Assembly: GCA_028282585.1 (NCBI GenBank)
Contig: JANQHR010000098.1
Coordinates: 1-31,890, forward strand
DNA from: Bacteroidales bacterium
GTDB taxonomy: Bacteria; Bacteroidota; Bacteroidia; Bacteroidales; UBA12077
Direction: 5' to 3'
Length of the DNA stretch: 31,890 bases
The notes beneath the pieces are model-generated. The model saw nothing but the letters and a program-made list of their open reading frames with translations. It made no database searches and was not told the origin of the DNA. Each line of letters opens with the position of its first letter. Position 1 is the stretch's first letter. Shown here piece after piece: positions 14,954 through 30,456 of the stretch. The position numbers were made by a program, and so were the translations under genes.

Positions 14954-16720
14954 TTATTTTCTTTTTCTTGAACGTTTTCCAGACTCAGATTTAGTTCCTG
15001 ATTTTCTCCTGGAGCGGTCTTTATCTTTTGGTCTGCTCCCCTCGGATCTATTCCTTTCACCTCGTTTACTCGCACGTTCAGAATCTCCACCCTTCGGTCT
15101 TTCTTTTGCTATTTCAGAATTAACCTTTAAACCCTCAAAAACCGATGAGTTTAATCCATCCAACACTTTATCTGTAAATTGTTTATCAATTTCAAAGAAT
15201 GAAAATGATTTCATGATATCAATTTTACCTATAACAATATTTCTTTCCCGGGTTGATTCATTAATTAATCCCATCAAACGTTGAGCATTTAATCCTTGAT
15301 TTTTACCAACGTTAATAAATAATCGTTTGAAATCCTTATTACTCAATCTACGTTTACCCTTGTCTTTTTCTTTCTGTCTATAATCTTTTTCATCCGGAAT
15401 ATTTAGATCAGGAGCATTTTTATAGTAATCCAAAAATCTATTAAATTCCAATGAAACAAATCTCTTGATTAAATCTTCCTTATCCAACCAATCCAGCTTT
15501 TTGTAAATCTCAGGTAGGAATCCATCAATTTGATCATGATCAATATCTACTTTTTCCATTTTATCAATTAAATGGAATAGTTGTTTTTTACAAACCGCTT
15601 TTCCAGTTGGAATATTGGCTTTTTCGAAATTTTTATTGATTTTTTTCTCAATTTCTTTAATTCTATATTTCTCGCGTAAATGTATAATTGCAATCGATAC
15701 TCCAGTTTTACCAGCCCTTCCGGTACGACCACTTCTATGTGTATAAGCTTCAATATCGTCTGGCAAATTATAATTAATTACATGTGAAAGGTCATTCACA
15801 TCTAATCCCCGAGCTGCAACATCGGTAGCAACAAGCATTTGTAAGTTTTTTAGTCTGAATCGACTCATTACATGGTCTCGTTGTGCTTGAGATAAATCAC
15901 CATGAAGTGCGTCCGCATTATAGCCGTCTTTAATAAGCCATTCAGCGACTTCTTTTGTTTCCATACGCGTACGACAGAATATAATAGCATAAATATCCGG
16001 GTTCATATCCGCAATTCTTTTCAATGCCAGATAACGATCACGAGCATGAACCAGATAGTAAAGATGTTTTACGCTTTCCGCTCCGGCATTTTTCTTGCCT
16101 ACCGTAATCTCCTCTGGATTCATCATGTAATTTTTTGCGATTGCAGCAACCTCTTTTGGCATGGTAGCCGAAAAAAGCAAGGTTCTCCTCTCATCAGGAA
16201 CAGATTCCAATATATCATTCAAATCGTCACGAAAACCCATATTTAGCATTTCATCTGCCTCATCAAGAACAACTGTTTGTACGTTGGTAATATCCGCTTT
16301 TTTTCTTTTAATCAGGTCTAGCATTCTACCAGGTGTTGCTACAATTACATGTACTCCCATTCTTAATCCTCGAATTTGAGCATCAATGTTTGCACCACCA
16401 TAAACCGGTAATACTTTTAATCCCTTAATATACTTGGAATAAGCCATCAAATCCTTTGCAATTTGAACGCACAACTCCCTGGTTGGGGAAAGAATCAAAG
16501 CTTGTGGGTATTTTTCTTTTACTTTAACTTGCTGTGCAATTGGTAAGCCAAACGCTGCTGTTTTTCCCGTTCCTGTCTGAGCTAACGCAACAATATCGCG
16601 GTCTGTTTCTAGTAAAACCGGAATTACTTCTTTTTGAACGGGCATTGCTTCTTCAAAACCCAATTCGTTAATTCCCTTTAGGATATCTTCCTGGATACCT
16701 AAATCGGTAAATTTTGCCAT
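14954..16720 (-). CDS. DEAD-box RNA helicase (DeaD/CsdA-like) with DbpA-type RNA-binding domain
   Basis: AQTGTGKT, PTREL, TPGR, DEAD, SAT, HRSGRTGRAG; C-terminal RLFINVGK domain and basic tail. Confidence 0.95.
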   Translation of the reverse strand: MAKFTDLGIQEDILKGINELGFEEAMPVQKEVIPVLLETDRDIVALAQTGTGKTAAFGLPIAQQVKVKEKYPQALILSPTRELCVQIAKDLMAYSKYIKGLKVLPVYGGANIDAQIRGLRMGVHVIVATPGRMLDLIKRKKADITNVQTVVLDEADEMLNMGFRDDLNDILESVPDERRTLLFSATMPKEVAAIAKNYMMNPEEITVGKKNAGAESVKHLYYLVHARDRYLALKRIADMNPDIYAIIFCRTRMETKEVAEWLIKDGYNADALHGDLSQAQRDHVMSRFRLKNLQMLVATDVAARGLDVNDLSHVINYNLPDDIEAYTHRSGRTGRAGKTGVSIAIIHLREKYRIKEIEKKINKNFEKANIPTGKAVCKKQLFHLIDKMEKVDIDHDQIDGFLPEIYKKLDWLDKEDLIKRFVSLEFNRFLDYYKNAPDLNIPDEKDYRQKEKDKGKRRLSNKDFKRLFINVGKNQGLNAQRLMGLINESTRERNIVIGKIDIMKSFSFFEIDKQFTDKVLDGLNSSVFEGLKVNSEIAKERPKGGDSERASKRGERNRSEGSRPKDKDRSRRKSGTKSESGKRSRKRK

Positions 16721-16808
16721 TTATTTTCCTCCCGTGCTTTCAGATCCCTAATAAGCTTGCCGAAAGCCAGGTAGAAACCCTAAACACTATTTAATTATTA
16801 TAAGGGCG

Positions 16809-16816
16809 CAAAGGTA
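16809..16816 (-). promoter_or_regulatory. Bacteroidota sigma-A -7 promoter element for the helicase
   Basis: Minus-strand TACCTTTG; implies a 5' leader of about 80 nt. Confidence 0.7.
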
Positions 16817-17092
16817 GAATAATTATTTGATTTTGAGCTGCTTTTTCGGTCTAATTTATATTATTCATTTTCTGAAGTCATTTTCTTTACCATTTTCATT
16901 TTATTTTTCTGTTAAAAAAGCAACTTGTCCATAGCAAGCTAACTTTACCTATTTAACTGATTTTCTGATTCATAAAATTCATAACAGCACAAAATTCAAT
17001 TTAAGTCTATATCTTCTTTTTAAAAAACAAGTTAAAGATTCGACAATCTTATACGTTCTTTTGAATTGAAACAAAAATCAAAATCCTAAAAA

Positions 17093-18274
17093 ATGAAAGA
17101 AGTTGTAATTATATCTGCTGCACGCACTGCCATCGGAAACTTTGGAGGAAGTCTTGCTAATTTTTCCGCTGTTGATCTTGGAGTTTTTGCAGCAAAAGAA
17201 GCCATAAAAAGAGCTGGTATTAATCCTTCCGATATTGATGAAACAATTGTAGGTAATATTCTTTCTGCTGGAGAAGGACAAAATATAGCTCGCCAAATTT
17301 CAATTAATTCCGGAATTCCGGAGACCAGCCCGGCAATGACAATCAATAAACTTTGTGGATCGGGACTAAGAGCAGTAAGTATGGCTGCACAATTTATTAT
17401 GTTAGGCGATGCTGATATTGTTTTGGCAGGAGGAACAGAAAGCATGTCAAATGCTCCGTATCTACTAAAGAAAGCTCGCTTTGGATATAAAATGGGGCAC
17501 CATGAAATTGTTGATAGTATGATCCTGGATGGATTAACCGATGCTTTCAATAATTATCATATGGGTATAACAGCAGAGAATATAGCAGAACAATGGGAAA
17601 TTAGTCGTGAAAAGCAAGATGAATTCGCACTAAATAGTCAGTTAAAAACAGAGAAAGCCATTAAGGAAGGAAGATTTAAAGATGAAATTGTTCCTATAGA
17701 AATACCTCAACGTAAAGGAAGTCCAATTATTTTTGATAACGATGAATTCCCAAAAATGGGATTAAACATTGAAAAACTAGCCAGGCTTCGTCCGGCCTTT
17801 AAAAAGGATGGAACTGTTACAGCAGGCAATGCTTCAGGTATTAATGATGGAGCAGCAATGCTAATTGTTATGTCAAAAGATAAAGCTGATGAACTAGGAT
17901 TAAAACCAATAGCTAAAATTGTTTCTTATGCTAAGGCGGCACTTGATCCTAAAATTATGGGTTATGGCCCTGTTCCAGCAACTAAAGCAGCTTTGTTAAA
18001 AGCTAGATTAGAAATCGAAGATATCGATTTAATTGAAGCTAACGAAGCCTTTGCTGCTCAATCTATTGCGGTTGCCCGTGATTTAAATTTAGATCCCGAA
18101 AAGGTAAATGTTAATGGTGGAGCTATTGCTTTAGGGCATCCAATTGGAGCATCCGGAGCACGAATATTAACTACTTTATTATATGAAATGAGTAGAACCA
18201 ATGCAAAGAAAGGTTTGGCAACCCTTTGTATTGGGGGTGGACAAGGAACATCAATGATCGTTGAAAAATACTAA
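17093..18274 (+). CDS. Acetyl-CoA C-acetyltransferase (thiolase II, AtoB/PhaA-like)
   Basis: NKLCGSG catalytic Cys, [21 protein letters not shown]. Confidence 0.95.
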
Positions 18275-18296
18275 CATAAAATATAAAAAATTAATC

Positions 18297-19040
18297 ATGA
18301 AAAGATTAGAAAATAAAATTGCTATTATAACTGGTGGAGCAGACGGTATTGGAAAAGCCGGAGCTATTAAATTTGCTGACGAAGGTGCAGTCGTAATCAT
18401 ATGGGATATGAACGAAGAAAAAGGTGAAACTACTGCAAAGGAAATTAAAGATAAGGGAGGGAAAGCCGAATTTTTTAAAGTAAATACTGCCATTTTCTCA
18501 GACGTAGAAAAAGCTACAAACGATGCAATAGATGCATATGGACAAATTGATATTTTGGTTAACAATGCAGGTATCACAAGAGATTCTACATTAAAGAAAA
18601 TGACCAATGAACAATGGCAACAGGTTATTGATGTAAACTTAACAGGAGTTTTTAACTGCACCAAAAATGTAAGTCAGCACATGGTTGAAAGAAAGTATGG
18701 CAGAATTATTAATACTTCATCCGTTGTTGCTTTATATGGAAATTTTGGGCAAACTAATTATGTTGCGACAAAAGCCGGATTAATTGGAATGACCAAAACT
18801 TTAGCAAAAGAACTAGGAAGAAAAAACATTACTGTTAATGCAGTTGCTCCCGGCTTTATTTTAACAGAAATGGTAAGGCAAATGCCCCAAGATGTTTTAA
18901 AAGCTATGGAATCTAAAGTTCCTTTGCAGCGTTTGGGTAATCCTGAAGAAATTGCATCGGCTTACTTATTCTTAGCGAGCGATGAAGCAGCATATATTAA
19001 TGGCTCAGTATTAAGCGTTGATGGTGGAATGACAATTTAG
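18297..19040 (+). CDS. SDR, acetoacetyl-CoA / 3-oxoacyl reductase (PhaB/FabG-like)
   Basis: TGGADGIG, NNAGITRD, GQTNYVATK (YxxxK), VAPGFI; start adjusted to ATG 18297. Confidence 0.9.
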   Translation: MKRLENKIAIITGGADGIGKAGAIKFADEGAVVIIWDMNEEKGETTAKEIKDKGGKAEFFKVNTAIFSDVEKATNDAIDAYGQIDILVNNAGITRDSTLKKMTNEQWQQVIDVNLTGVFNCTKNVSQHMVERKYGRIINTSSVVALYGNFGQTNYVATKAGLIGMTKTLAKELGRKNITVNAVAPGFILTEMVRQMPQDVLKAMESKVPLQRLGNPEEIASAYLFLASDEAAYINGSVLSVDGGMTI

Positions 19041-19050
19041 TAAATGAAAG

Positions 19051-19087
19051 AAACGGGGATCATCATTATTGAGATTCCTGTTTTTTT
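19051..19087 (+). terminator. Intrinsic terminator-like hairpin after the reductase
   Basis: AAACGGGGATC (19051-19061) / GATTCCTGTTT (19073-19083) followed by a T run. Confidence 0.6.
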
Positions 19088-19121
19088 ATTTATCTTTTTA
19101 TACTTATTTAACAATATTATT

Positions 19122-20675
19122 ATGGCAACTTCGCAGCAAATTATTGGAACATCAATTCTCATTTTATTTTATTCCATATTGATTATTTATTTTGTTGTTC
19201 GTGGAGCACTAAAAACAAAAAGCTTAAACGATTATGCTGTTGGGAACTTTAATTTCTCTCCTGCATTTGTAGGTTTATCCTTGGCCGTTTCCATGACCAG
19301 TGCTGCTACTTTTGTAGTAAATCCAGGACTCATTTCCGTTTATGGATTTAGCGGAGTTTTATCCTTTGGGCTATTTTTCCCTTTAGCCACAATTATTTCT
19401 TTAATCGTTTTAACAAAAAGCTTCCGCAAACACGGTCAATCTTTAAAAGCAGTTACATTAGCACAATGGATTGGGAAACGGTATGAAAGTAAATATTATG
19501 CTCTTTTCATGGGCTTTTTATCGTTTTTATTGATCACATTTATTGTATTGATACTGGTTGCCCTAACGAAAGTTCTATCCAAATCATTAAACGCAAATGA
19601 AATTTGGATATTAGCTATAATCATCATTTTTGTATTTGGATACATGATGTTTGGTGGTGCAAATTCATTAGTGTATACAAATACCATTCAGGCCTTCGTA
19701 ATGTTAGTTGTTGCTTTCATCCTATTATTTTCAGGTTACGAGTATTTTAAAGATGGAATGGACGGCTTTTTTCAGAAATTAGCTGAAATTAATCCGGTTT
19801 TAACAAAATCAACCAATCCGGAAAGTGTTTTATTCCGAGACTTTTTTGAGATCATTTTTGCTCAACTTGTAGTTGGTGCGGCTGTTGTCTGCCAACCACA
19901 TATCATAACAAAATCCTTATTCCTAAAAGAAGAAAAAGATGTTAATAAATTTCTGGTTACTGCCGTTATTGCTGAAATTTTATTCTTTTCGGTTGTATTT
20001 GTAGGATTATATGCACGAATAGCATTCCCTGATTTAACAGCAAATGGTGAAGTATTAAAAACGGATGGAATTATACCTGCTTATGTTGTTAAAATATTTT
20101 CAAATGGAATATTATCTGTAATTATTGGTTTAGTTGTTATTTTAGGTTTAATAAGTGCAGGACTTTCAACCCTGGAAGGATTAATTCAATCTTTATCTAC
20201 TACGATTACCTCCGATATTATTAAACCACTTTTAGGCAATCGTATTAAACAAGAAAAATCGTTCATTCTTATTAATAAAATGGCAATTGTCTTTTTAGCC
20301 ATTATTTCATTTTTAGTTTCGGTAGATCAGCTATTAAATCCAAAATTAAGTGTCGCCATATTAGCACAAAATGGAGTATATGCTTATTTCTCGGTTGCAT
20401 TTATCCCCATTGTTTTCGGAATATTTATAAAGAATGTCAATTTAAAAGCTCCGGTTATTGCTTCAATCACTGCATTTGTAGTGCATTTTACTGTTTATTA
20501 TGGATTCCCTTATTTAGTAAATAATTTCGAAGCTGATTTTGGGCTTTTCACAAAATATTTGGAAGGCCCGGTTCGTAACCCAGCGATTGCATCAACATCT
20601 GCAATTCTAATATCGACTATTGTAGGAATTATAGCTCACCAAATGACAAAGCAAAAAATAAATCATAATGGATAA
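19122..20675 (+). CDS. Sodium:solute symporter (SSS/SLC5 family)
   Basis: Many TM helices; DYAVG, SMTSAATF..PG, YMMFGG...VYTNTIQ, QPHI, SAGLST; start adjusted to ATG 19122. Confidence 0.9.
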   Translation: MATSQQIIGTSILILFYSILIIYFVVRGALKTKSLNDYAVGNFNFSPAFVGLSLAVSMTSAATFVVNPGLISVYGFSGVLSFGLFFPLATIISLIVLTKSFRKHGQSLKAVTLAQWIGKRYESKYYALFMGFLSFLLITFIVLILVALTKVLSKSLNANEIWILAIIIIFVFGYMMFGGANSLVYTNTIQAFVMLVVAFILLFSGYEYFKDGMDGFFQKLAEINPVLTKSTNPESVLFRDFFEIIFAQLVVGAAVVCQPHIITKSLFLKEEKDVNKFLVTAVIAEILFFSVVFVGLYARIAFPDLTANGEVLKTDGIIPAYVVKIFSNGILSVIIGLVVILGLISAGLSTLEGLIQSLSTTITSDIIKPLLGNRIKQEKSFILINKMAIVFLAIISFLVSVDQLLNPKLSVAILAQNGVYAYFSVAFIPIVFGIFIKNVNLKAPVIASITAFVVHFTVYYGFPYLVNNFEADFGLFTKYLEGPVRNPAIASTSAILISTIVGIIAHQMTKQKINHNG

Positions 20676-21978
20676 TTTTAAAGAAATATATACAAGTAAG
20701 CTCACAAGCATTGAAGAAGCTGTAAAGCTTATGAAAAGTGATACAGACGTAATTGTTGCTCAGTGCGCTTCTGAACCGCAAGGTTGTATGTCTAAATTTC
20801 ACTTGGTAAAAGATCAGGTTCATAATGTCAAGGTTTTTTCTGTGTTAACACTAAAACCTTACGACTTTTACATGAAGCCCGAAATGAAAGGGCATTTCGA
20901 GTTATGTAGCTGGTTTCATGCTCCCGGATCAAGAGAGGCCATAAAAAATGGAGCAGGAACCGTTACATTTGTGCCAAACATGTTACATAGAGCTGCAACA
21001 GATCGTTTAAAAGTCAGAAAACCTCATCTATTTTTTGGAACCTGCACACCACCGGATGATAAAGGTTTTGTTTCTTTATCATTAGGTATAACCTACGAAA
21101 AAGAAATTATTGAAGCTGCGGATTTTGTCGTTTTAGAAGTAAATGATCAATTACCACGCACATTTGGAGATACTCATTTACATGTAAGTGATGTAGACTT
21201 TTTTGTTGAAAACTCCCAGGTTCCTCCTACTCTGCCTTCACCAAATCCGGATGAAGTGGCTATGCAAATCGGAAATAACATAGCTAAACTTGTTGAAGAT
21301 GGTTCAACCATACAATTAGGGATTGGGGACATTCCTAATGCAGCCGCTCTTTCTTTGAGAAATAAGAAAGATTTAGGAGTCCATACCGAAATGTTGGTTG
21401 ATTCCATGATGGAACTATACGAAATGGGTGTAATTAATAATACAAAAAAAGCCTATTACAAAGATAAGTTTGTGTGCACATTCGCCATGGGATCAGAGAA
21501 ACTATATAAATGGTTAGATAATAATCCAGCTGTGGAATTTTTGCGCGGTAAATATGTAAATGACCCTTGCGAAGTCCGTAAAAATTCCCAAATGGTATCA
21601 ATTAACACTTGCATTATGGTTGATTTTACAGGTCAGGTAGCAAGTGAATCCATTGGTATAAATCAATATTCAGGAACTGGAGGTCAAACCGATACGGCTG
21701 TTGGAGCCATAGAAGGATTTGATGGAAAAGGAAAGTCGATCATCGCCTGCCGTTCCACTGCAAAAAATGGGGAAGTTACGACCATTGTTCCTACCTTACC
21801 CGAAGGTACTGCAGTAACCTTGCACAGAAGTAATACGGATTATATTGTTACCGAGCATGGAATTGCACGTTTAACCGGATTAACTATAAAAGAAAGAACC
21901 GAAGCATTAATAAAAATTGCACATCCTGATTTTAGAGAAGAATTAAAACAAAAGGCTCAGGCCATGGGATATTTATAA
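20668..21978 (+). CDS. Acetyl-CoA hydrolase/transferase family, 4-hydroxybutyrate CoA-transferase-like
   Basis: DGSTIQLGIGDIP, LGVHTEM catalytic Glu, SGTGGQTD, YIVTEHGIA, IAHPDFRE. Confidence 0.9.
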   Translation: MDNFKEIYTSKLTSIEEAVKLMKSDTDVIVAQCASEPQGCMSKFHLVKDQVHNVKVFSVLTLKPYDFYMKPEMKGHFELCSWFHAPGSREAIKNGAGTVTFVPNMLHRAATDRLKVRKPHLFFGTCTPPDDKGFVSLSLGITYEKEIIEAADFVVLEVNDQLPRTFGDTHLHVSDVDFFVENSQVPPTLPSPNPDEVAMQIGNNIAKLVEDGSTIQLGIGDIPNAAALSLRNKKDLGVHTEMLVDSMMELYEMGVINNTKKAYYKDKFVCTFAMGSEKLYKWLDNNPAVEFLRGKYVNDPCEVRKNSQMVSINTCIMVDFTGQVASESIGINQYSGTGGQTDTAVGAIEGFDGKGKSIIACRSTAKNGEVTTIVPTLPEGTAVTLHRSNTDYIVTEHGIARLTGLTIKERTEALIKIAHPDFREELKQKAQAMGYL

Positions 21979-22020
21979 TCAAAAAAATGATCAATTAGTA
22001 AATATAAAATATTCAATGCT

Positions 22021-22054
22021 TGAAACCTGAAACCTGAAACCTGAAATCTGAAAT
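22021..22054 (+). repeat. Heptamer tandem repeat (TGAAA[C/T]C) x about 5
   Basis: TGAAACC TGAAACC TGAAACC TGAAATC TGAAAT. Confidence 0.85.
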
Positions 22055-22059
22055 AAAAT

Positions 22060-23067
22060 ATGTTACCAACAAAAATAATCGGAACAGGAGTTTATGCTCC
22101 GGGAAAACCCATAAATAATGAAGAACTTAAAAGTTTAGCTAAAATTGATTTCGATGCTGAAAAAACGGAGTTTGGCTTAGGAATAACGCAACGTCATATT
22201 GCTCACTTGCGGAAAATTGACGAAACTACAGCCGATTTTGCAACCAAAGCAGCTTTAAATGCGATTCAAGATGCAAATATCACACCCGATGATGTTAATT
22301 TATTTGCAGTTGCCACCGATACACCGGAATTTATCTCTCCGGCAACAGCCCTTATAGTTCAAGGTAGAATTCAGAAAAAGGAAAACTGGGCATCAAGCTT
22401 TGACGTTAGCGCATCATGTGCCAGTTTCACCATTGCCCTGGATAATATTGTTCGTACAATGGCCACAGATCCAAGTATAAAATATGCAGTTGTAATTGGA
22501 GTGTACAATATGCCTGCATATGTTCGCAAAGGAGATGCTTTCGGATATTCTATTTTTGCCGATGGTGCCGGCGCATTTGTATTGGAAAGAAAAGAAGGTG
22601 ATCCATCCAAATACATTAATGGCCAGCTTCTAACCGATGGAACGCAATGGGATTACGTAGGCGTATATGCTGGCGGAACCAGAAATCCGGTTACAGAAAA
22701 AGTTCTAAAAGAAGAAAAACACGGATTACTAAACATCCAACCTTTACCAAGCGATCGCAATGTTCGTTTATGGCCAATGGTAATCAAAAAATTACTGGAT
22801 AAATCTAATACAGGTATTGAGGAAATCGACCATTTTATTTTTACTCAAATTAATCGATCTGTCATTAAAAAAGTGATGGCTACTATAGATCAAGCGCTGG
22901 AAAAAACCAGTTTTGTTATGGATCGATATGGCTACACCGGATCAGGATGTGTTCCAATGGCCTTTCATCATGCAGTTAAAGAAAAGAAAATAAAGCGTGG
23001 TGATAAAATAGTATTCGTTGCTTCCGGTGCAGGATTAGCCGTAGGAAGTAACCTTTTTGTTTATTAA
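22060..23067 (+). CDS. 3-oxoacyl-ACP synthase III (FabH)-like protein, non-canonical
   Basis: KAS III fold motifs (IIGTGVYAP, FDVSASCASF, FADGAGA, GAGL); TQIN replaces HQAN and YGYT replaces xGNT. Confidence 0.85.
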   Translation: MLPTKIIGTGVYAPGKPINNEELKSLAKIDFDAEKTEFGLGITQRHIAHLRKIDETTADFATKAALNAIQDANITPDDVNLFAVATDTPEFISPATALIVQGRIQKKENWASSFDVSASCASFTIALDNIVRTMATDPSIKYAVVIGVYNMPAYVRKGDAFGYSIFADGAGAFVLERKEGDPSKYINGQLLTDGTQWDYVGVYAGGTRNPVTEKVLKEEKHGLLNIQPLPSDRNVRLWPMVIKKLLDKSNTGIEEIDHFIFTQINRSVIKKVMATIDQALEKTSFVMDRYGYTGSGCVPMAFHHAVKEKKIKRGDKIVFVASGAGLAVGSNLFVY

Positions 23068-23078
23068 AATTTCTAATC

Positions 23079-24098
23079 ATGACTGATATAAATGTAGGTA
23101 TTGTTGGAACCGGAATTTATATTCCCGAAGGCAGAATGACAGCCAAAAATATTTCTGAAGCTACACATGGTGTTTGGGTAGAAAAAGCTGTGATTGAAAA
23201 ACTGGGAATTGTTGAAAAACCCATTCCGGGAAAAAATGATGGAACACAAGAAATGGGTGTTAAAGCTGGTCTTGATGTATTGAAAAATACCGGTATTGAT
23301 CCTAAAGAAATCGATTTAATTTTATGCATTGGTGAAGAATGGAAAGAATATCCGCTAACAACTTCAGGTATATATATTCAGGAAAAAATTGGTGCAATTA
23401 ATGCATGGGCTATCGATATTCAGCAGCGTTGCGGGACCACTGTTGCAACCATGAAAATAGCCAAAGATATGATGATTTCAGATCCCGAGATCAATACAGT
23501 AATGATTGTTGGAGGCTATAGAAATGGAGACTTTATTGATTTTACAGATAACTCTGTTTCGTTTATGTTTAACCTTTCCTGTGGTGCGGGAGCTTTAATT
23601 CTAAAAAAGAATTATGGAAAGAATCTTTTATTAGGTAGTCACATTATGACTGACGGAACACTTGCACGTGATGCCGGCGTTGAGTTTGGCGGAACAGAAA
23701 AACCGATTACAAAGGAAAATGCCGATATAGCGTATAAATCTTTACGGGTATTTGATGAAAAACACATGAAAGACAGGCTAAATGAAGTTTCTCTAAAAAA
23801 CTGGTTTTATTGTATTGACAAGGCTTTTGAAAAATCCGGAATATCAAAAAAAGAATTAAGTTATTTAGCTGTTTTACATTTTAAACGTTCCATGAATGAG
23901 TTCATGCTCGAAGAACTTGGTTTAACTAAAGAGCAAAGTATATATCTAGAAAATTATGGTCATATTGGACAGATTGATCAGATATTATCTATTCATTTAG
24001 CATTATCAAAAGGTTTGGTAAAAGAAGGAACGGTAATTTCAATGATTGCTGCAGGAATTGGTTATGCCTGGGGCGCAAATGTAATTAAATGGGGATAA
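23079..24098 (+). CDS. 3-oxoacyl-ACP synthase III-like protein with Cys-His-His triad (PRK06840-like)
   Basis: VGIVGTGIYIP, IDIQQRCG, GGYRNGD, LHFKRS, YGHIGQIDQILS, AGIGYAWGA. Confidence 0.85.
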   Translation: MTDINVGIVGTGIYIPEGRMTAKNISEATHGVWVEKAVIEKLGIVEKPIPGKNDGTQEMGVKAGLDVLKNTGIDPKEIDLILCIGEEWKEYPLTTSGIYIQEKIGAINAWAIDIQQRCGTTVATMKIAKDMMISDPEINTVMIVGGYRNGDFIDFTDNSVSFMFNLSCGAGALILKKNYGKNLLLGSHIMTDGTLARDAGVEFGGTEKPITKENADIAYKSLRVFDEKHMKDRLNEVSLKNWFYCIDKAFEKSGISKKELSYLAVLHFKRSMNEFMLEELGLTKEQSIYLENYGHIGQIDQILSIHLALSKGLVKEGTVISMIAAGIGYAWGANVIKWG

Positions 24099-24271
24099 AA
24101 CAATGATAAGTCGCAAACATAATTACAATACATATATTTTTGATAATGTGTTTTTTACATAATTTATAATACAATATAACAAATTAGTCAACCTTAAATT
24201 AAAGTAAAACAACAATTAAATAGATTATCATTATAAATAACTTTAAACAAATAATAAAATTCTAAAAAGCT

Positions 24272-25117
24272 ATGAAAAATAAAAGTTTATTATGGATCGC
24301 AATTGTTCTTCTTGGAATAATTGGTTTTACCTCTTGTAGTGATGAAACAGAAAATAAAAGTCCTATTTTCGAAAGCATTGAAGTTTCTGATGATAATAAA
24401 ACCGTAACTGTTACATTTAGTGAACCTGTTTATGCTAACACAGATGGCACAGGAAATATTGAAAGTGGTGATATTAAAGTAACCATTACCGGGGTTGACT
24501 TTACATTTGATGTAACACATACAGCAGGCTCAGCTACTATGACAATAGCATTAACCATTACTTCAATTACAGAAGGAGACGAAATTGTAACTGTTGAACC
24601 AGCTAGCGCAACAAGCATTTATGATGCAGATGGAAAACCTATGGAAGCGACTGAAATATTAACTTCAGAAAGTTTAACGCAGGACCTTGGTATTATCGGC
24701 GAGTGGTATTCAGTTGGTGATAATGTTGCTACATTGTTAGTTGCTTATTTCAGTGTTGATTCAATTTATGCAGCATTTTATGATGACTATAAATATTTAG
24801 TAGAACAATTCAATATCGGGAATACAAGTTCAACTCCTGATGTAATTTATACAGGTACATTTGTAATTGAAAAATCAACTGTTGATGAAATATGGACTAT
24901 AGACTTAACTCAAGAATTACCATTTGCGGCTACCTCCGTAGGAATTTATGAGATTAAAACTTCTCCGGAAGTTTTATGGTATGAGGTTGTTCAAACTTCG
25001 GGAACTCAAAATATACCTCCTACTCCTGAAGGTGGATTTGGAAGCTCTAATGGAGGAACATTGGTTATAGATGGAGTTAACTGGAATCTACAAAAATTCA
25101 TACGAATTACAGAATAA
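24272..25117 (+). CDS. Surface lipoprotein with Ig-like N-terminal and beta-rich C-terminal domains
   Basis: Lipobox FTS-C followed by acidic SDETE; VTVTFSEPV Ig-like motif. Confidence 0.75.
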   Translation: MKNKSLLWIAIVLLGIIGFTSCSDETENKSPIFESIEVSDDNKTVTVTFSEPVYANTDGTGNIESGDIKVTITGVDFTFDVTHTAGSATMTIALTITSITEGDEIVTVEPASATSIYDADGKPMEATEILTSESLTQDLGIIGEWYSVGDNVATLLVAYFSVDSIYAAFYDDYKYLVEQFNIGNTSSTPDVIYTGTFVIEKSTVDEIWTIDLTQELPFAATSVGIYEIKTSPEVLWYEVVQTSGTQNIPPTPEGGFGSSNGGTLVIDGVNWNLQKFIRITE

Positions 25118-25146
25118 AAAAGCCTTTTTGCAGTGCATAGCACTTT

Positions 25147-25186
25147 GTAAAGTCGAATTATATCAACTAAATTCGGCTTTACTTTT
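25147..25186 (+). terminator. Intercistronic stem-loop, terminator or mRNA stabiliser
   Basis: GTAAAGTCGAATT (25147-25159) / AATTCGGCTTTAC (25170-25182) followed by TTTT. Confidence 0.55.
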
Positions 25187-25220
25187 AAAAACATAATTCA
25201 TTTTTAACTTAATACTACGC

Positions 25221-26843
25221 ATGAAAAAGTACATACTACTAACTTTAGTAGCAGTCATAATTCCTTTGAGCCATTCATTTGCTCAGGACGAAACTGAAGT
25301 TAAAAATCACCAGGAAAGTTCAAGCATAAACTATTTCGAACACGATATTCCTTATACGGCAAAAGCAAATAAAGAATTTCAGTTTCTTGCTTTTTTTATA
25401 ACGCAAGGAGTTAGTTCCAATTTTTATCCTGAGAGCAGCTTATTTAATGGTCAATTGGTTGGAAGATTATTTGGTCAAAACTCATCAACAACCTCTGATA
25501 CAGTGACTGCTTATTATATCGAACAAAGAATCTTACCATTTTTTATCTATCAACCCAAATTATTTAACGGAAGAGCTATTCTGAGAGCATCATTCGAAAT
25601 TGACTGGACCTGGGGAGATCAGGCATATGGTTTAAGTGGAAACAAAGGATCGGCTATTTCGGCAGACCAGGTTAATATACAAACCCAAAATATAGAGTTA
25701 GAATTAATTCCCTGGAAAAATTGGTATATAAACCTTGGTTTACAGAGACTATATGATACTCCTTTTAACCCTTATAGAACGTTTTTTGAAAAAATGACAA
25801 CTACTGGTTATCGCTTAGCTTATTGGGGAACAGATGCTGTTGGGGTAAGTGTTCGTTGGGATAGAGATTATTCTAAAACAAAAGCCGGGTTTTATAAACT
25901 TTACGAAAACAATGCGGAAGATCAGGATGATGTTACCTTAATGGAACTTGTTTATAGAAAGAAACTTTCTACCATGTGGAATCTTGGTGGTTCCATGTAC
26001 TATTTAATGGACAGAGGAAAAGGTCAGGGAGGAGTTTCGGTGTTTGGTCAAGGTTTAAATAGTACCCTGGTTAATTATACTGGCGGGTTTAATTTTGGTT
26101 TACCTACCAATGAATATCATGCTGATGTAGCGTGGATTGGAACTTTTTTCAGCAGAAACCCGGATTTTTGGTTAGATAGATTGCTGTTTACCGGATTTTT
26201 AAATTATAATCTCGGTACAGTAGAAACTAAGGAAAACGGAAGTTGGAATAAAGTTGCTGACATCGGAGGTATGGCTGCCAACTTGAGAGGTGCTTATCGA
26301 TATGGACAAACCTTAAATGATTATTTTTCAGTTGATCTTATCTATACTACTGGTGATGGCGATGGGCTGGATAATGATAAATACTCCGGAGTTATTACCG
26401 GAAACACTTGGGGAATGCCTGCTTCTGTATTTATAAGTAGTGGAGCTTATTTACTTTTTCCGCATGCTAATGTTGTAAATAGATTTACCCCGGTTGTTGC
26501 AGACATATCGAATATGGGTTATGGATTAACTGCAGGTACTGCTAATTTCCACAGAGATGTAATCCCTCATAAGTTAAATGCTAAATTAGGTGCGGCAATG
26601 GCATATAGCGCTGTTAAACCCCAAGATGCGGATAAATATATGGGAACAGAGTTAAATGCAGCTTTAAAATACTCATTTGGGCCATTTATGAGTCTTGAAC
26701 TACATGGTGCTTATATGTGGTTAGGTGATTTCTATGATAGTAATGACGCAAGTCATGGAACAGATATCAATGGAATCTATAATACTGAAAGACCAACCGA
26801 TCCATGGACTGTATTTTTAGTATATAAATGGTTAATGTTTTAA
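25221..26843 (+). CDS. Outer membrane beta-barrel protein, putative porin/channel
   Basis: Signal peptide ending FA-Q; Gly/aromatic-rich amphipathic strands; C-terminal VYKWLMF. Confidence 0.7.
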   Translation: MKKYILLTLVAVIIPLSHSFAQDETEVKNHQESSSINYFEHDIPYTAKANKEFQFLAFFITQGVSSNFYPESSLFNGQLVGRLFGQNSSTTSDTVTAYYIEQRILPFFIYQPKLFNGRAILRASFEIDWTWGDQAYGLSGNKGSAISADQVNIQTQNIELELIPWKNWYINLGLQRLYDTPFNPYRTFFEKMTTTGYRLAYWGTDAVGVSVRWDRDYSKTKAGFYKLYENNAEDQDDVTLMELVYRKKLSTMWNLGGSMYYLMDRGKGQGGVSVFGQGLNSTLVNYTGGFNFGLPTNEYHADVAWIGTFFSRNPDFWLDRLLFTGFLNYNLGTVETKENGSWNKVADIGGMAANLRGAYRYGQTLNDYFSVDLIYTTGDGDGLDNDKYSGVITGNTWGMPASVFISSGAYLLFPHANVVNRFTPVVADISNMGYGLTAGTANFHRDVIPHKLNAKLGAAMAYSAVKPQDADKYMGTELNAALKYSFGPFMSLELHGAYMWLGDFYDSNDASHGTDINGIYNTERPTDPWTVFLVYKWLMF

Positions 26844-26853
26844 ATTTTACAAG

Positions 26854-27807
26854 ATGAAAAAGATGAAAAACTACACAATTATATTAGTCGTATTTTCAAC
26901 GTTAATCATTGGTTGTTCTCCTTATAAAAATGTTCCAAACATAAAATCAATGAGTGAACTCAACTATGGCTATGAAGTGAAATATGCGGAGCTATCAAAT
27001 GATATAAAACTTGCATATGTTGATGAAGGTAACGGATCTGAAACAATTATTTTCATTCACGGTTTAGGAAGTTATATCCCGGCATGGAAAAAGAATATTG
27101 ATGAATTGAGTAAAAATTACAGATGCATTGCTATTGATCTTCCTGGCTATGGTAAATCATCTAAAAATCCTCATAGCGGTTTAATGAGTTTTTATGCCAA
27201 AACGGTTGCTGAATTCATAGATAAATTGGAATTAAGCAAAGTAACTTTAGCCGGACATTCAATGGGTGGTCAAATTTCAATTGTAACTGCTTTGCATTTT
27301 CCAGATAAAGTTGAAAAATTAATACTTGTAGATCCGGCTGGTTTTGAATTATTCCATCCCGGACAACGCCTTTGGTTTAAGGATGTTATGACTCCTAATT
27401 TGGTTCGATTAACCTCTGTTGAAGCCATTGAAACGAATTTAGCTTCTAATTTTTATAATATGCCAAAGGATGCCATGTTTATGATAGAAGATCGCATTGC
27501 CATGAGAACTGCAGACGACTTCGAAAATTATTGCTATACAGTAAGCCAGTCTGTGGCTGGAATGGTTGATGAACCTGTTTTTGATAAATTAAAACACATA
27601 AAACAACCAACACTAATCTTTTTTGGAGAAAATGATAACTTAATTCCTAACCGTTATTTAAATCCCGGTAAAACAGAACCTATTGCAAGAGCAGGAGCAA
27701 ATGAGATTAAGAATAGTCAATTGGTTATGGTTCCAAAATGTGGTCATTTTATGATGTTCGAAAAACCTGAAATTTTTAATACTGAAGTTTCAAACTTTCT
27801 TAAATAA
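26854..27807 (+). CDS. Lipoprotein alpha/beta hydrolase (esterase/depolymerase-like)
   Basis: Lipobox IIG-C; FIHGLG oxyanion, DLPGYGKS, GHSMGG, GENDNLIP, CGHF. Confidence 0.9.
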   Translation: MKKMKNYTIILVVFSTLIIGCSPYKNVPNIKSMSELNYGYEVKYAELSNDIKLAYVDEGNGSETIIFIHGLGSYIPAWKKNIDELSKNYRCIAIDLPGYGKSSKNPHSGLMSFYAKTVAEFIDKLELSKVTLAGHSMGGQISIVTALHFPDKVEKLILVDPAGFELFHPGQRLWFKDVMTPNLVRLTSVEAIETNLASNFYNMPKDAMFMIEDRIAMRTADDFENYCYTVSQSVAGMVDEPVFDKLKHIKQPTLIFFGENDNLIPNRYLNPGKTEPIARAGANEIKNSQLVMVPKCGHFMMFEKPEIFNTEVSNFLK

Positions 27808-27826
27808 TTAATAGAACAAGAAAACA

Positions 27827-27863
27827 AAAGAGGTAATAAAAATTTATTACCTCTTTCTTTTTT
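27827..27863 (+). terminator. Intrinsic terminator closing the thiolase-hydrolase locus
   Basis: AAAGAGGTAATAAA / TTTATTACCTCTTT perfect inverted repeat followed by a T run. Confidence 0.8.
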
Positions 27864-27914
27864 ATTCTTTATTAAAATTTCAGTACTTTTCCTTAATCAA
27901 AAGCTTAGTATTTG

Positions 27915-29342
27915 ATGAAACAAAAGCTTACAAAATTTACCGATTTTGCAAACTCATTATATCCGCATGAGCTTGATTATCTTCTTTCTATTCAGCAATT
28001 TGCAACGAATGAAAATCTTAAAATATTAAATCTAATCAACTACAATTGCAAAAACCCTTTAAATACCTTACCATACGACGGAAGCTTAGATAAACGAAAA
28101 TATTCATATCTTAAAAATTGGATAGACAACAAGCTTAATGATATTGATGTTGACTATTATTATGAGTGGCTAATAAGTATTGAAAAACAAGTTATGACAG
28201 ATGCTATAATACCAGATGAAGAAAAAGATTTATTAGAAAAAACAAATACGACAAAACACACTCATTATTATTTTATCCGTTTCTATGAATTATTACAACA
28301 TTATCGTGACTATCTCTTAATTCGCGTACGAAACCAATATTATATTCCCATATCTGAATATCTTGAAAATTATAGAGAAAAGTATCAGTTAACATTAGAA
28401 GTAAATAAAAAATTAAATAACGCTACAATAGATATCATAAAGCAACATTCAACAACTGAAAATAAAACCGAATCAAAACATTGGGAAAAATTTTTAAAAG
28501 AAACTTTCTTAAACAAAAATTTGGATGGATATACCAGGTATAGAGCCATTGTGCGATTAACATTTTTGTATTACAACTATCGCGAATTTGAGAAACTAAG
28601 ATCCATTTATGAAACCCTGGATAAAATGTTTAAGTCGGATGTTTTCTATTCAAAACGTATTCTTGCTAACTATTATGGCAACCGCGCAATGATGCATTTA
28701 AAACTTCGTGAACTTGATGAAGCTGAAAAATATGGTTTCTTATCTATCCGGCAGCATAACAGCGATTATCTATTTTACTTACTAAATTTAATTGGTGTAC
28801 TTCTGCAGCGAGAAAAGAATAGGGAAGCATACAATTTAATGACCGAATCCATTCCTGAATTAAAAAAAACAAATAGTTATTACTATAAAATTGGCTTTGT
28901 TGCATTTTATATAAGAACATTGTTAGCAAATAATATGATTGACAAAGCAGTAAGTTATGCTGAAACTTTCCTTGATGGTTATAAAAAAGAAATCTTAAAA
29001 CACCGATGGCATTTATTTTTTAGTGAATATATACGAGCTCTTTTTAAAGCAGAAAAGTATTCAAAATTACTGTCGATTGTTAAACGTTATAATTTGGTAA
29101 ATAAGGAAAAACTATTTATTGGTAAAGCAAAATACTTACCCATTATATATTGGTACGGCACTGTGGCTAGCTATATAGAGGGTGCCATATCGGAAAAGAA
29201 ACTAAAGGAGATAATTATAAAATCCGGGCAATCACTCATTAAACATAAATATAAATCCATTAAAATTAATGAATTACTTGACGAGCTCTCGGGATCGCTA
29301 CCAAATATTACAAAGGAATTAAAACGCGAAATTCTTATGTAA
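27915..29342 (+). CDS. Hypothetical alpha-helical (TPR-like) protein
   Basis: About 475 aa, Tyr/Leu/Lys-rich helical repeats (e.g. ANYYGNRAMMHLKLRELDEAEKY); no signal peptide. Confidence 0.7.
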   Translation: MKQKLTKFTDFANSLYPHELDYLLSIQQFATNENLKILNLINYNCKNPLNTLPYDGSLDKRKYSYLKNWIDNKLNDIDVDYYYEWLISIEKQVMTDAIIPDEEKDLLEKTNTTKHTHYYFIRFYELLQHYRDYLLIRVRNQYYIPISEYLENYREKYQLTLEVNKKLNNATIDIIKQHSTTENKTESKHWEKFLKETFLNKNLDGYTRYRAIVRLTFLYYNYREFEKLRSIYETLDKMFKSDVFYSKRILANYYGNRAMMHLKLRELDEAEKYGFLSIRQHNSDYLFYLLNLIGVLLQREKNREAYNLMTESIPELKKTNSYYYKIGFVAFYIRTLLANNMIDKAVSYAETFLDGYKKEILKHRWHLFFSEYIRALFKAEKYSKLLSIVKRYNLVNKEKLFIGKAKYLPIIYWYGTVASYIEGAISEKKLKEIIIKSGQSLIKHKYKSIKINELLDELSGSLPNITKELKREILM

Positions 29343-30456
29343 TTAATTTTTCGTAATACTTTGAACTTCCGGTTTCCAATATTTCCAAAATAATCTTTTC
29401 CGTCACTGGTCCAACACCTTTCAAAGTTTTCAGTTTATTCCTGTATTCCGCAATTGGTTCTTTTAACTGCGAAATAGAATAAGCTCCATAACCATAAGGT
29501 GATTTTTGGCCTTTTTGTTTGAGGATATAATCCAACTGACCAAGAATTACTGCAACCAGATCATTCTGGTCAATGAATTGATTATATAACCTGGCCGGAA
29601 TTCTAATTGGAATCTCGTATTTTTTTGCCAAATCTAAAAAAAGTGAATTTACAGAGTTATAATATTCATAAGATGCTCCTCCCCATTTATTGCCTTTATA
29701 AATCATGTTATATTCATGTAATAGATTTGGATAATGTTCTTTAAGTACATTATAAAAATGATCTTGTTGGCGTCCTTCTTTTAAAGTCATTCTTCCAAAA
29801 ATGATAAAATCTACACCAGCTTCTTTAAATCTTCGAATTGAGTTTTCCAATTGATCAGGTAAATCAGTAATAAATGGTATCACAGGCATTAAAAAAGTTC
29901 CAACCGAAAAACCTTCTTTCTTGAAAAAAGAGATGGTTTCAAGCCTCTCAGTTGCCGAAGGAACGCCAGGTTCCATAATCTTACAAGCTTTGTCATCAAC
30001 TCCGGAAAAACTAAAACTTACAAATGCCCTCGATTTTTTGTTTATTTCCTTCAAAATATCAACATCCCTTTTTACCAGGGTAGATTTAGTTAATACATGT
30101 ACAGGAAAATCGTATTGATAAACTACTTTCAATACATTCCTTGAAAGTTCATACTTTTTATCTAGTGCATTATAGCTATCACCAACACCTCCTCCGATCA
30201 TAATAAAACCTTTTTTCATAGGATTTCTTTTCCTGGTTGGGTCAAGCTCTTTTTTTAATAATTCAGGAGCATTTATTTTAACTTCAATATCTTTTCCAAA
30301 TTCTCCTTCAACATAATATCCTTCTGCTCTTCCATCACAATAAGCGCAATTATGTAAACAGCCCCGATAAAGATTCATACCATAACGGGCTACGAACCAA
30401 GAGTCTACCATCTTATGTTTTCTCAATAAAGATTTAGCTTGTATTTCTGTAACCAT
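29335..30456 (-). CDS. Radical SAM protein, spore-photoproduct-lyase-like, with C-terminal HhH domain
   Basis: NLYRGCLHNCAYC (CxxxCxxC), VKINAPELL, VLTKS.LV.RD, MEPGVPS...RL, MPVIPFITD; C-terminal LKGVGPVT. Confidence 0.88.
   Translation of the reverse strand: MVTEIQAKSLLRKHKMVDSWFVARYGMNLYRGCLHNCAYCDGRAEGYYVEGEFGKDIEVKINAPELLKKELDPTRKRNPMKKGFIMIGGGVGDSYNALDKKYELSRNVLKVVYQYDFPVHVLTKSTLVKRDVDILKEINKKSRAFVSFSFSGVDDKACKIMEPGVPSATERLETISFFKKEGFSVGTFLMPVIPFITDLPDQLENSIRRFKEAGVDFIIFGRMTLKEGRQQDHFYNVLKEHYPNLLHEYNMIYKGNKWGGASYEYYNSVNSLFLDLAKKYEIPIRIPARLYNQFIDQNDLVAVILGQLDYILKQKGQKSPYGYGAYSISQLKEPIAEYRNKLKTLKGVGPVTEKIILEILETGSSKYYEKLIT

Follow-up and report, generated by a model that had tools for sequence, protein, structure and literature searches.

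What could a Bacteroidales bacterium gain from an operon that sets a thiolase, a dehydrogenase, and a coenzyme A (CoA) transferase beside two aberrant β-ketoacyl-acyl carrier protein (ACP) synthases of type III (KAS III), a symporter, and three exported proteins? The question is raised by nine co-oriented plus-strand open reading frames (ORFs) at 17093-27807 of contig JANQHR010000098.1 (assembly GCA_028282585.1), whose entire 31,890 nucleotides are referred to here as the window. Its DNA is low in G+C (0.28 to 0.38), its parent genome (G000) is 4.89 Mb and 98.35% complete, and the closest relatives of the locus are found in Bacteroidales metagenome-assembled genomes (MAGs). Using an entirely comparative and predictive analysis, we propose an operon that takes up and degrades small esters formed from short hydroxy acids, likeliest oligomers of (R)-3-hydroxybutyrate (3HB) or 3-hydroxyvalerate derived from polyhydroxybutyrate (PHB) or other polyhydroxyalkanoates (PHA); to this reading we would give about an even chance.

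Neighboring genes in the run overlap by up to 14 nt or lie at most 173 nt apart (gaps of -14 to 173 nt), and a gene for an ACP, for FabD, or for the PHA synthase PhaC therefore cannot fit inside the locus. The run is followed by a hairpin of 13 pairs and a T run (27827-27856) that reads as a terminator on both strands; its 13-bp stem is the longest among 16 terminator-like sites in the scanned region, compared with 7.5 ± 3.5 sites in shuffled sequences. An earlier note on this DNA had described nine co-oriented genes closed by a strong terminator, with two atypical KAS III enzymes and no phaC, ACP, or fabD gene among them, and each item of that description holds in the ORF map, the family assignments, and the residue patterns given below.

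Conservation of the module and its neighbors in other phyla

Related loci were sought with one genome per species, and the best 80 of 477 stretches with a relative were kept, 54 of them from non-Firmicutes and 26 from Firmicutes. Gene counts given with the words "with room" refer to loci having room for the gene or genes counted. Of the non-Firmicutes loci, 37 have room for all nine genes, and 35 of these have them colinear on one strand. The gene order seen in the window recurs in dozens of genomes, more than chance would give. Such loci are found in Bacteroidales, Salinivirgaceae, Tenuifilaceae, Paludibacteraceae, Lentimicrobiaceae, Carboxylicivirga, Algivirga, and one Chlorobiota MAG. Across the phylum the module is rare; KasB, one of the two KAS III proteins, is found at E ≤ 1e-100 in three of 401 evenly sampled phylum genomes, G000 among them.

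The Firmicutes loci carry the core in different company. All 26 have kasB, and the CoA transferase gene cot is present in 23, the dehydrogenase gene sdr in 13, and kasA in three; MaoC genes are found in five, alpha/beta hydrolases in 23 (35 genes), and a PAS-domain sigma-54 activator in 21. ATP-binding cassette (ABC) transporters of the LIV type are represented by ATPases in 20 loci, permeases in 19, and a lipoprotein binding protein in 13. A second, deeper clade, reached via P0124 (42% identical), consists of 80 metagenome loci (L103-L182) with a GC content of 0.46 to 0.70, in which identity to the window is 36 to 43% for the KasB-like protein, 33 to 62% for the KasA-like protein (54 to 61% in the listed loci), and 66 to 72% for the CoA transferase. 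These loci also hold two hydrolases, a short-chain dehydrogenase (SDR), a LIV-type ABC importer, and an SCP-x-type thiolase, and their regulator is a double-TetR protein.

Binding-protein-dependent ABC systems import, and sigma-54/PAS and TetR regulators and chemoreceptor-like neighbors are typical of catabolic operons. In other phyla the same core has ABC importers, regulators of the sigma-54 or TetR type, and chemoreceptor-like proteins as its neighbors, which supports a module that imports and degrades rather than one that builds; the preference of the earlier note for uptake and catabolism over synthesis gains support accordingly from these comparisons. The identities do not run in parallel along the module. 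KasB of the window is 73 to 81% identical to its Firmicutes counterparts and ∼40% to those of the high-GC clade, and the pattern is reversed for the CoA transferase and KasA (66 to 72% and 54 to 61% with the high-GC clade, compared with 44 to 51% and 42 to 47% with Firmicutes). It looks as if the module had been put together anew from parts.

Signaling genes are also present in the sister loci. In 12 of the 26 Firmicutes loci (for example, L016:9124-9966 and L033:2061-2909), the hydrolase gene and kasB are separated by a gene for a soluble protein of ∼280 amino acids whose only domain is a methyl-accepting chemotaxis protein (MCP) signaling domain, and a full chemoreceptor lies near the L016 locus, which suggests chemotaxis or signaling linked to that substrate. 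Of the 80 second-clade loci, 41 encode, divergently from the kasB-like gene, a 393-residue regulator with two tandem TetR_N domains (for example, L146:6389-7570).

Hydrolases beside kasB and the candidate substrate

The earlier note had guessed at PHB or 3HB oligomers as the substrate. That guess gains independent, though incomplete, support from the hydrolases encoded beside kasB in related loci and from the (R)-specific enzymes; the esterase of the window and the second clade, which do not support it, are taken up below. Among 43 hydrolases scanned (36 non-Bacteroidota and seven Bacteroidota), 12 match NF050089, the model of intracellular short-chain-length PHA depolymerases, at E ≤ 1e-60, and the kasB-adjacent hydrolase does so in 12 of 27 non-Bacteroidota loci. 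When six of these matches were scored singly, five exceeded the cut-off of 300 bits (412.5, 414.6, 406, 417, and 347.9 bits) and one was just under it (298.3). The protein scoring 347.9 bits is encoded in L067, from a Chlorobiota MAG, where thl-sdr-sss-cot-kasA-kasB is present at 67 to 78% identity to the window and a depolymerase-family gene replaces the lipoprotein-barrel-esterase trio; the cytoplasmic module of the window is therefore tied directly to the NF050089 family. We note that L029 (Tissierellaceae) has a thirteenth depolymerase-family gene beside kasB (L029:259-1150), split into two ORFs, which may reflect a frameshift, a pseudogene, or an assembly error.

No signal peptide was found in the depolymerase-family hydrolases beside kasB, nor in the hydrolases of the Firmicutes loci in general, and in Firmicutes the ester bond would therefore be imported intact; Wukongibacter loci have a Lipase_2 protein instead, apparently with a signal peptide. 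MaoC is encoded in five of the 27 non-Bacteroidota loci, and sdr is missing from four of those five, an alternation of the kind expected if the two enzymes are alternative exits from (R)-3-hydroxyacyl-CoA. The earlier note had argued against PHB storage, and PhaC (PF07167, TIGR01836) was indeed not found in the nearly complete window genome, nor in G402-G404; G401 has a class III/IV-like PhaC gene. Where PhaC is not found, the hydrolases would thus not serve to mobilize granules of the cell's own making. Soluble 3HB oligomers are also found extracellularly, and the release of methyl-esterified 3HB oligomers has been reported (PMC13614103).

Cytoplasmic enzymes and the symporter

The route invoked in the earlier note, by which a CoA transferase, a dehydrogenase, and a thiolase together convert 3HB to acetyl-CoA, is matched by the enzyme families encoded at the front of the operon, but it leaves the best-conserved genes, the KAS III pair, without a role. 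The first gene, thl (17093-18274), encodes an acetyl-CoA C-acetyltransferase, a PhaA/BktB-like thiolase (Thiolase_N, E = 5.7e-108; TIGR01930, 506.2 bits against a cut-off of 240.55) that falls under the cut-off of the BktB subfamily model NF006552 (544 against 565 bits); it is present in 39 of 42 non-Firmicutes loci with room. The FabG/PhaB-like product of sdr (18261-19040; adh_short_C2, E = 2e-69) scores above the cut-off for FabG (TIGR01830, 312.3 against 297.75 bits) and under that for acetoacetyl-CoA reductase (TIGR01829, 279.6 against 302.1), and we infer that it acts as an (R)-3-hydroxyacyl-CoA dehydrogenase. Because family alignments begin at residues 13 to 19, its start is probably the ATG at 18297 and not the TTG at 18261. 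Both sdr and sss are present in 45 of 45 loci with room.

The sss product (19044-20675) is a predicted inner-membrane importer of the sodium:solute symporter (SSS) family (PF00474, E = 9.3e-35) that reaches no NCBIfam model at its cut-off (panF, 93 against 328 bits). By homology over its full length, the product of cot (20668-21978; AcetylCoA_hyd_C, E = 1.7e-58) is assigned to the AbfT/Cat2/But family of 4-hydroxybutyrate-type CoA transferases. Its best solved relative is the 4-hydroxybutyrate CoA-transferase 3gk7 (E = 2.5e-104, residues 4-429), followed by 3eh7 (E = 9.8e-103), and its score of 266 bits is under the cut-off (674.8) of the equivalog model TIGR03948. The gene is present in 48 of 49 loci with room.

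Exported proteins

The last three genes encode a lipoprotein (lipo, 24272-25117), a predicted outer-membrane barrel (omp, 25221-26843), and a lipoprotein alpha/beta hydrolase of the GHSMGG serine esterase type (abh, 26854-27807). We aligned 20 orthologues of the first and 32 of the second, and predicted the structures of both proteins. The 281-residue Lipo protein is without known family, with no Pfam or NCBIfam match; its model (predicted local distance difference test [pLDDT] score of 81.9) has an Ig-like N-terminal domain and an eight-stranded beta C-terminal domain, for which no PDB structure matched by fold at E ≤ 0.001 and Atlas scores did not exceed 0.79. The hydrolase matches Abhydrolase_1 (E = 4.9e-30), and its Ser, Asp, and His are invariant in 43 of 43 aligned hydrolases.

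In Bacteroidota, acidic residues after the lipobox Cys act as the export signal of surface-exposed lipoproteins. A lipobox is present in 46 of 50 Lipo orthologues, with at least two acidic residues after the Cys in 43 of the 46; it is present in 41 of 46 Abh orthologues, none of the 41 with an acidic tail. Under this export rule, Lipo, a putative surface binding protein, would be exposed on the cell surface and the esterase would face the periplasm.

The 540-residue omp product has a signal peptide and no Pfam match above threshold (Alginate_exp, E = 0.052) or NCBIfam match, and omp is present in 48 of 48 loci with room. Its predicted structure (mean pLDDT 68) is a barrel of ∼18 strands, for which the best Foldseek match is AlgE (E = 3.6e-15; template-modeling score of 0.52 by query and 0.60 by target), followed by Campylobacter MOMP, OccK/OprD, and DcaP. 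The modeled fold is that of a substrate channel and neither of a TonB-dependent SusC nor of FadL, and TonB-receptor, Plug, and SusD Pfam models gave no match in the 540- or the 281-residue protein, even at E ≤ 10. AlgE, OccK, OprD, and DcaP pass carboxylate-bearing solutes. Complex prediction for the barrel and the lipoprotein scored 0.01 and 0.00 against a mark of 0.32, a result that says nothing either way.

An atypical KAS III pair

Both kasA (22060-23067) and kasB (23079-24098), the latter being the best-conserved gene of the module, encode proteins with ACP_syn_III and ACP_syn_III_C domains. In comparison with FabH (2ebd and the window genome's own canonical FabH, encoded elsewhere [C45]), KasA has kept only the Cys of the active site, with His replaced by Thr and Asn by Tyr in 56 of 56 sequences. 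KasB has kept the Cys, has a His one column later, and has His in place of Asn, in 81 of 81 sequences. Neither protein has the Cys-His-Asn triad of FabH, and neither is therefore a standard decarboxylating FabH; with the FabH model TIGR00747 they reach 159.5 and 94.4 bits, under its cut-off of 292.1, and the gaps of the locus have no room for ACP or malonyl-CoA:ACP transacylase partners. The best NCBIfam match of KasA is NF006829 (185.9 against 249 bits), and kasA is present in 51 of 53 loci with room.

KasB belongs to NF005308/PRK06840 (460.2 bits against a cut-off of 315), a family named only "3-oxoacyl-ACP synthase"; KasA, at 126.8 bits, is not a member. The top 120 database relatives of KasB are 76 to 100% identical and come from Bacteroidales as well as Tissierellia, Sedimentibacter, Proteiniborus, and Cytobacillus/Bacillaceae. 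Across phyla, KasB is 71 to 93% identical. At E ≤ 1e-30, only 107 relatives were found among 1.84 billion cluster representatives. Ten full-length relatives at 34 to 48% identity all exceed the PRK06840 cut-off (328 to 442 bits), with a Gly-His in 10 of 10, the Cys in nine of 10, and a Leu-His in nine of 10; no protein in the 14 control model genomes exceeds it. In a FastTree phylogeny of KasB, all 26 Firmicutes sequences group together (clade support 0.82) and the Bacilli form a subclade among them (0.999); the tree is rooted on distant paralogues, and this rooting is unreliable. In a literature search whose coverage excluded most subscription journals and all supplements, we recognized no description of the locus or of PRK06840 function.

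KasA is absent at most Firmicutes loci. In five kasA-less Firmicutes genomes it was not found elsewhere either, the best matches being FabH-looking proteins with identities of 29 to 42% (37% or less over the full length). CerJ, ChlB3, and PqsC are among the PDB matches of the pair, those of CerJ (to KasB) and PqsC being weak. We also considered HMG-CoA-synthase-like chemistry for KasB and rejected it, as the otherwise invariant GEEW is lost in the wider PRK06840 family (GENY, GAQH, GSEY, and similar); the bacterial HMG-CoA synthase model TIGR01835 had no match in 121 genomes of the phylum sample.

A putative pathway

Taken as a catabolic uptake operon, the parts would work as follows. The lipoprotein, placed at the surface by its acidic tail, would capture the ester; the AlgE/OprD-like barrel, with ∼18 strands in the model, would admit it inward through the outer membrane; the periplasmic lipoprotein esterase, whose fold and triad are evident, would trim it, presumably by acting on this same ester; and the SSS symporter would bring in the resulting monomer or dimer. 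In the cytoplasm, as their families suggest, the 4-hydroxybutyrate-type CoA transferase would form the acyl-CoA at the expense of acetyl-CoA, the SDR would oxidize (R)-3-hydroxyacyl-CoA to 3-oxoacyl-CoA, and the thiolase would convert this to acetyl-CoA.

For the KAS III enzymes, our leading guess is that their Cys opens an ester linkage in a dimer or oligomer, either imported as such or activated with CoA, and that the acyl group is then handed on to CoA. This thiolysis (ester + CoA → 3-hydroxyacyl-CoA + alcohol) would save the thioester energy that is lost in hydrolysis. KAS III-fold O-acyltransferases such as CerJ catalyze the reverse reaction. CoA-dependent ester thiolysis by the pair is a tentative suggestion, and we think it rather unlikely; the same low expectation attaches to the idea that KasB, with KasA if present, is a thiolase-fold "ester thiolase" and the module a widespread and unrecognized pathway for scavenging PHA fragments. 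The proposed chemistry, from ester and CoA to 3HB-CoA, resembles the thiolytic PHB cleavage reported for Ralstonia eutropha PhaZ1 (PhaZa1; PMC3430594). PhaZ1 acts on native granules and does not have a thiolase fold, whereas here the candidate is of KAS III fold and the substrate would be soluble imported oligomers.

Several observations weigh against 3-hydroxyacyl oligomers as the substrate or against thiolysis. First and foremost, the KAS III enzymes are superfluous in a plain 3HB route, so that the most conserved genes speak for some other substrate or chemistry. Second, the esterase of the window is itself no match for the depolymerase family, scoring 106.6 bits with NF050089 against the cut-off of 300; it is the best NF050089 match of the window genome (89 bits), and its group is the next-best scorer on a custom depolymerase hidden Markov model (HMM), but the PHB depolymerase 8ynv matches it over residues 42-166 only, and its nearest solved relatives are the C-C hydrolases MhpC (E = 5.2e-26), BphD, and HsaD. 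Third, most of the 12 depolymerase-bearing loci belong to related Tissierellia, with two divergent versions besides, and together they amount to about three independent cases and not 12. A PcaD-like hydrolase replaces the depolymerase family in many other Firmicutes loci, and no depolymerase-like hydrolase was found in the 80 second-clade loci (maximum of 125 bits with the custom HMM). Fourth, no Esterase_PHB or Lipase_2 polymer depolymerase was found in the window genome, so that any oligomers would at best be made by other organisms, and the characterized relatives nearest to the CoA transferase act on 4-hydroxybutyrate, not on 3HB. Two further ideas were abandoned. The cot-less loci L011 and L016, each with MaoC, a depolymerase-family hydrolase, and kasB, had seemed to argue for thiolysis, but a transferase with 64 to 65% identity is encoded elsewhere in both genomes; an obligatory KasA-KasB heterodimer is likewise unsupported, because many Firmicutes have KasB without KasA.

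Alternative explanations

The main rival keeps the same architecture of uptake and catabolism and changes the substrate, which would be another small ester, a lactone, a β-diketone, or a β-keto or hydroxy acid, with the KAS III enzymes performing a C-C bond step in the manner of β-keto-acid cleavage enzymes. A possible form is a Cys-dependent retro-Claisen cleavage or acyl exchange on a β-dicarbonyl compound to give acetoacetate or acetoacetyl-CoA, finished by the CoA transferase and the thiolase. We regard this as a serious alternative of appreciable, if minor, probability, as it would give the most conserved genes a task that the plain 3HB route does not offer them, and it draws as well on the C-C hydrolases among the esterase's relatives, on the PcaD-like hydrolases of many Firmicutes and all second-clade loci, on the 4-hydroxybutyrate type of the CoA transferase, and on the coupling of the module with an SCP-x-type thiolase in the second clade. 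Nonetheless, meta-cleavage-product hydrolases have the nucleophile motif G-N-S-x-G, and the esterase of the window has GHSMGG, with scores below the cut-offs for HsaD (110 against 400 bits) and BphD (85 against 462). The depolymerase-family genes beside kasB and the (R)-specific alternation of SDR and MaoC favor 3-hydroxyacyl esters, and we could not name a concrete alternative substrate that fits every gene.

It is improbable, and less likely than C-C cleavage, that the locus makes an acyl metabolite for export (for example, a ketide, a β-lactone or olefin precursor, or a lipid), with the thiolase and SDR making a 3-hydroxyacyl-CoA starter, the KAS III enzymes condensing or esterifying it, and the barrel and lipoproteins exporting or processing the product. 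Biosynthetic KAS III pairs do exist (PqsBC and LstAB; PqsC is the weak PDB match noted above), AlgE, the top fold match of the barrel, is an exporter, and KAS III, alpha/beta hydrolase, and SDR form a trio superficially like OleA/OleB/OleD. However, the locus lacks an ACP, a malonyl-transferase, an AMP-ligase (OleC/LstC), and an inner-membrane exporter, and has an SSS importer; KasA is without His and Asn and KasB without the Asn of FabH, and the cores in other phyla adjoin ABC importers, catabolic-type regulators, and chemoreceptor-like proteins.

Slightly less probable still, and again below C-C cleavage, is a PhaC-independent polyester or oligomer cycle, in which imported 3HB is converted to 3HB-CoA, the KAS III enzymes act as a new PHA or oligo-hydroxybutyrate synthase by the reverse of the proposed thiolysis, and depolymerase-like hydrolases mobilize the product; PhaA-like, PhaB-like, and depolymerase-family genes do occur together in genomes where PhaC was not found, and some KAS III-like enzymes are O-acyltransferases, among them CerJ (a weak PDB match of KasB), but no phasin or granule protein was seen in the locus, outer-membrane capture and a periplasmic esterase suit scavenging and not storage, and the sigma-54 and TetR regulators and chemoreceptor-like neighbors fit catabolism. 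On general biochemical grounds we also set aside readings that involve phloroglucinol or triacetate, carnitine-type compounds, malonate, levulinate, biotin (BioZ), or primer supply, as each fails to account for several genes or conflicts with the exported esterase.

Comparison with known systems

The uptake and catabolism of hydroxy acid esters, which remains our preferred reading, has a parallel in the SusC/SusD polysaccharide utilization loci (PULs), which likewise unite, in one co-regulated locus, a lipoprotein for surface binding, a passage through the outer membrane, hydrolysis outside the cytoplasm, import across the inner membrane, and cytoplasmic catabolic enzymes. They differ in that the operon described here has no TonB-dependent SusC and no SusD, its modeled conduit being an AlgE/OprD-like barrel, and has no glycoside hydrolases and no hybrid two-component or extracytoplasmic function (ECF)/anti-sigma regulator; its cargo would be an acyl ester. 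The earlier note had called the system PUL-like, operating with the same logic in the absence of SusC and SusD. As an analogy this stands, with an acidic-tailed lipoprotein, an AlgE/OprD-like channel, a non-acidic lipoprotein esterase, and an SSS importer in the corresponding positions; the locus is nonetheless not a PUL, because the defining SusC/SusD pair is absent.

A PhaA/BktB-like thiolase, a PhaB/FabG-like reductase, and, in related loci, an NF050089-family hydrolase beside kasB are shared with the PHB cycle (phaA, phaB, phaC, and a Bacillus thuringiensis-type PhaZ). Here, in contrast, PhaC, the synthase of a phaCAB operon, was not found in the genome, the hydrolase of the window is exported and under the NF050089 cut-off, and the enzymes would run degradatively on imported material. 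The Escherichia coli atoDAEB/AtoSC system similarly combines an importer, a CoA transferase, and a thiolase, and the Firmicutes versions share its use of a sigma-54 activator (368 bits with the AtoC model NF008469 against a cut-off of 714); the transferase here is of the AbfT/Cat2 type and not AtoDA, the importer is different, and hydrolases, an SDR, and KAS III enzymes are added.

Adjacent KAS III paralogues, one stripped of its catalytic His and Asn, are also known from PqsBC/LstAB, and Cys-based acyl-enzyme chemistry of the kind used there and by CerJ/ChlB3 is plausible here too. Those systems are biosynthetic, whereas KasA and KasB would act in a catabolic import module, and KasB has a Cys/His/His arrangement, belongs to PRK06840, and often occurs without KasA. 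Head-to-head condensation of the Ole/Lst type differs in its AMP-ligase (OleC/LstC), as no AMP-binding domain is present in any of the ten proteins (the nine of the operon and the linked tpr product). The 18-strand channels AlgE, OccK/OprD, and DcaP agree with the barrel in predicted fold and size, yet sequence identity is only 8 to 13%, and omp is paired with a dedicated surface lipoprotein gene.

A linked tenth gene and other features of the window

Downstream of the terminator-like hairpin, and just outside the coordinates considered in the earlier note, is a tenth gene, tpr (27912-29342, plus strand), that is linked to the operon and would be separately transcribed. Its product is a tetratricopeptide repeat (TPR)-like cytoplasmic protein of a Bacteroidota-only family that has no Pfam model, with a weak TPR_1 match (E = 0.044) and Bacteroidota "TPR" proteins as its nearest Atlas clusters (score 0.99). 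It accompanies the operon in 35 of 42 loci with room, and is upstream and divergent in L010 and L026. Its placement, either after the terminator or upstream and divergent, is as expected for a linked regulator or sensor, and we consider it a candidate for such a role.

Ahead of thl, related loci share the word GTCAACC; by raw count, it is exact in 22 of 36 such regions and has at most one mismatch in 31 of 36. It is commonly doubled, with copies ∼78 nt apart (in L028, L034, L041, and L045, for example, at about -160 and -82), and a second word, TTTCTTCGT, lies ∼50 nt downstream of the proximal copy, at about -31 in these loci, with an exact match in 11 regions and at most one mismatch in 14. 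The GTCAACC/TTTCTTCGT arrangement may be an operator or promoter element; the equivalent region of the window (16721-17092) has no match within one mismatch.

The flanking genes are housekeeping genes. A DEAD-box helicase gene (14954-16720) is divergent on the upstream side of the operon. Further upstream, on the minus strand, 9862-12321 encodes an 819-residue protein in which MurF-like Mur ligase domains are fused to an entire alanine racemase. On the downstream side, a minus-strand gene that converges on tpr (29335-30456) encodes a radical-SAM protein that carries a helix-hairpin-helix domain at its C terminus and matches spore-photoproduct lyase weakly.

Implications

Nutrient capture and hydroxy acid catabolism are already known, and what may be new here is the chemistry of the KAS III enzyme family. 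PHA ranks among the major storage polymers of bacteria and is also sold as a bioplastic, and to our knowledge the uptake and use of its soluble breakdown products by anaerobes and nonproducers are poorly mapped. If our reading is true, the operon would be a SusC/SusD-free outer-membrane system of Bacteroidota for capturing an acyl ester, would supply candidate binding proteins and esterases for 3HB oligomers, and would provide a biological context for the uncharacterized PRK06840 family. Cultured carriers exist (Carboxylicivirga taeanensis, Algivirga pacifica, Soehngenia longivitae, Brassicibacter mesophilus, Wukongibacter baidiensis, and Neobacillus sp. SCS-31 among them), and the module is therefore directly testable.

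The module is found on three chassis: one of porin and lipoprotein in Bacteroidota, one of sigma-54 activator and ABC importer in Firmicutes, and one of TetR regulator and ABC importer in the high-GC clade. Were KasB also an ester thiolase, thiolysis would be an acyl counterpart of glycan phosphorolysis, delivering (R)-3-hydroxyacyl-CoA directly, sparing the acetyl-CoA otherwise spent on monomer activation and, by our arithmetic, approximately doubling the ATP yield of the oxidative branch. Whatever the substrate proves to be, the module would represent a widespread catabolic pathway built around a KAS III pair.

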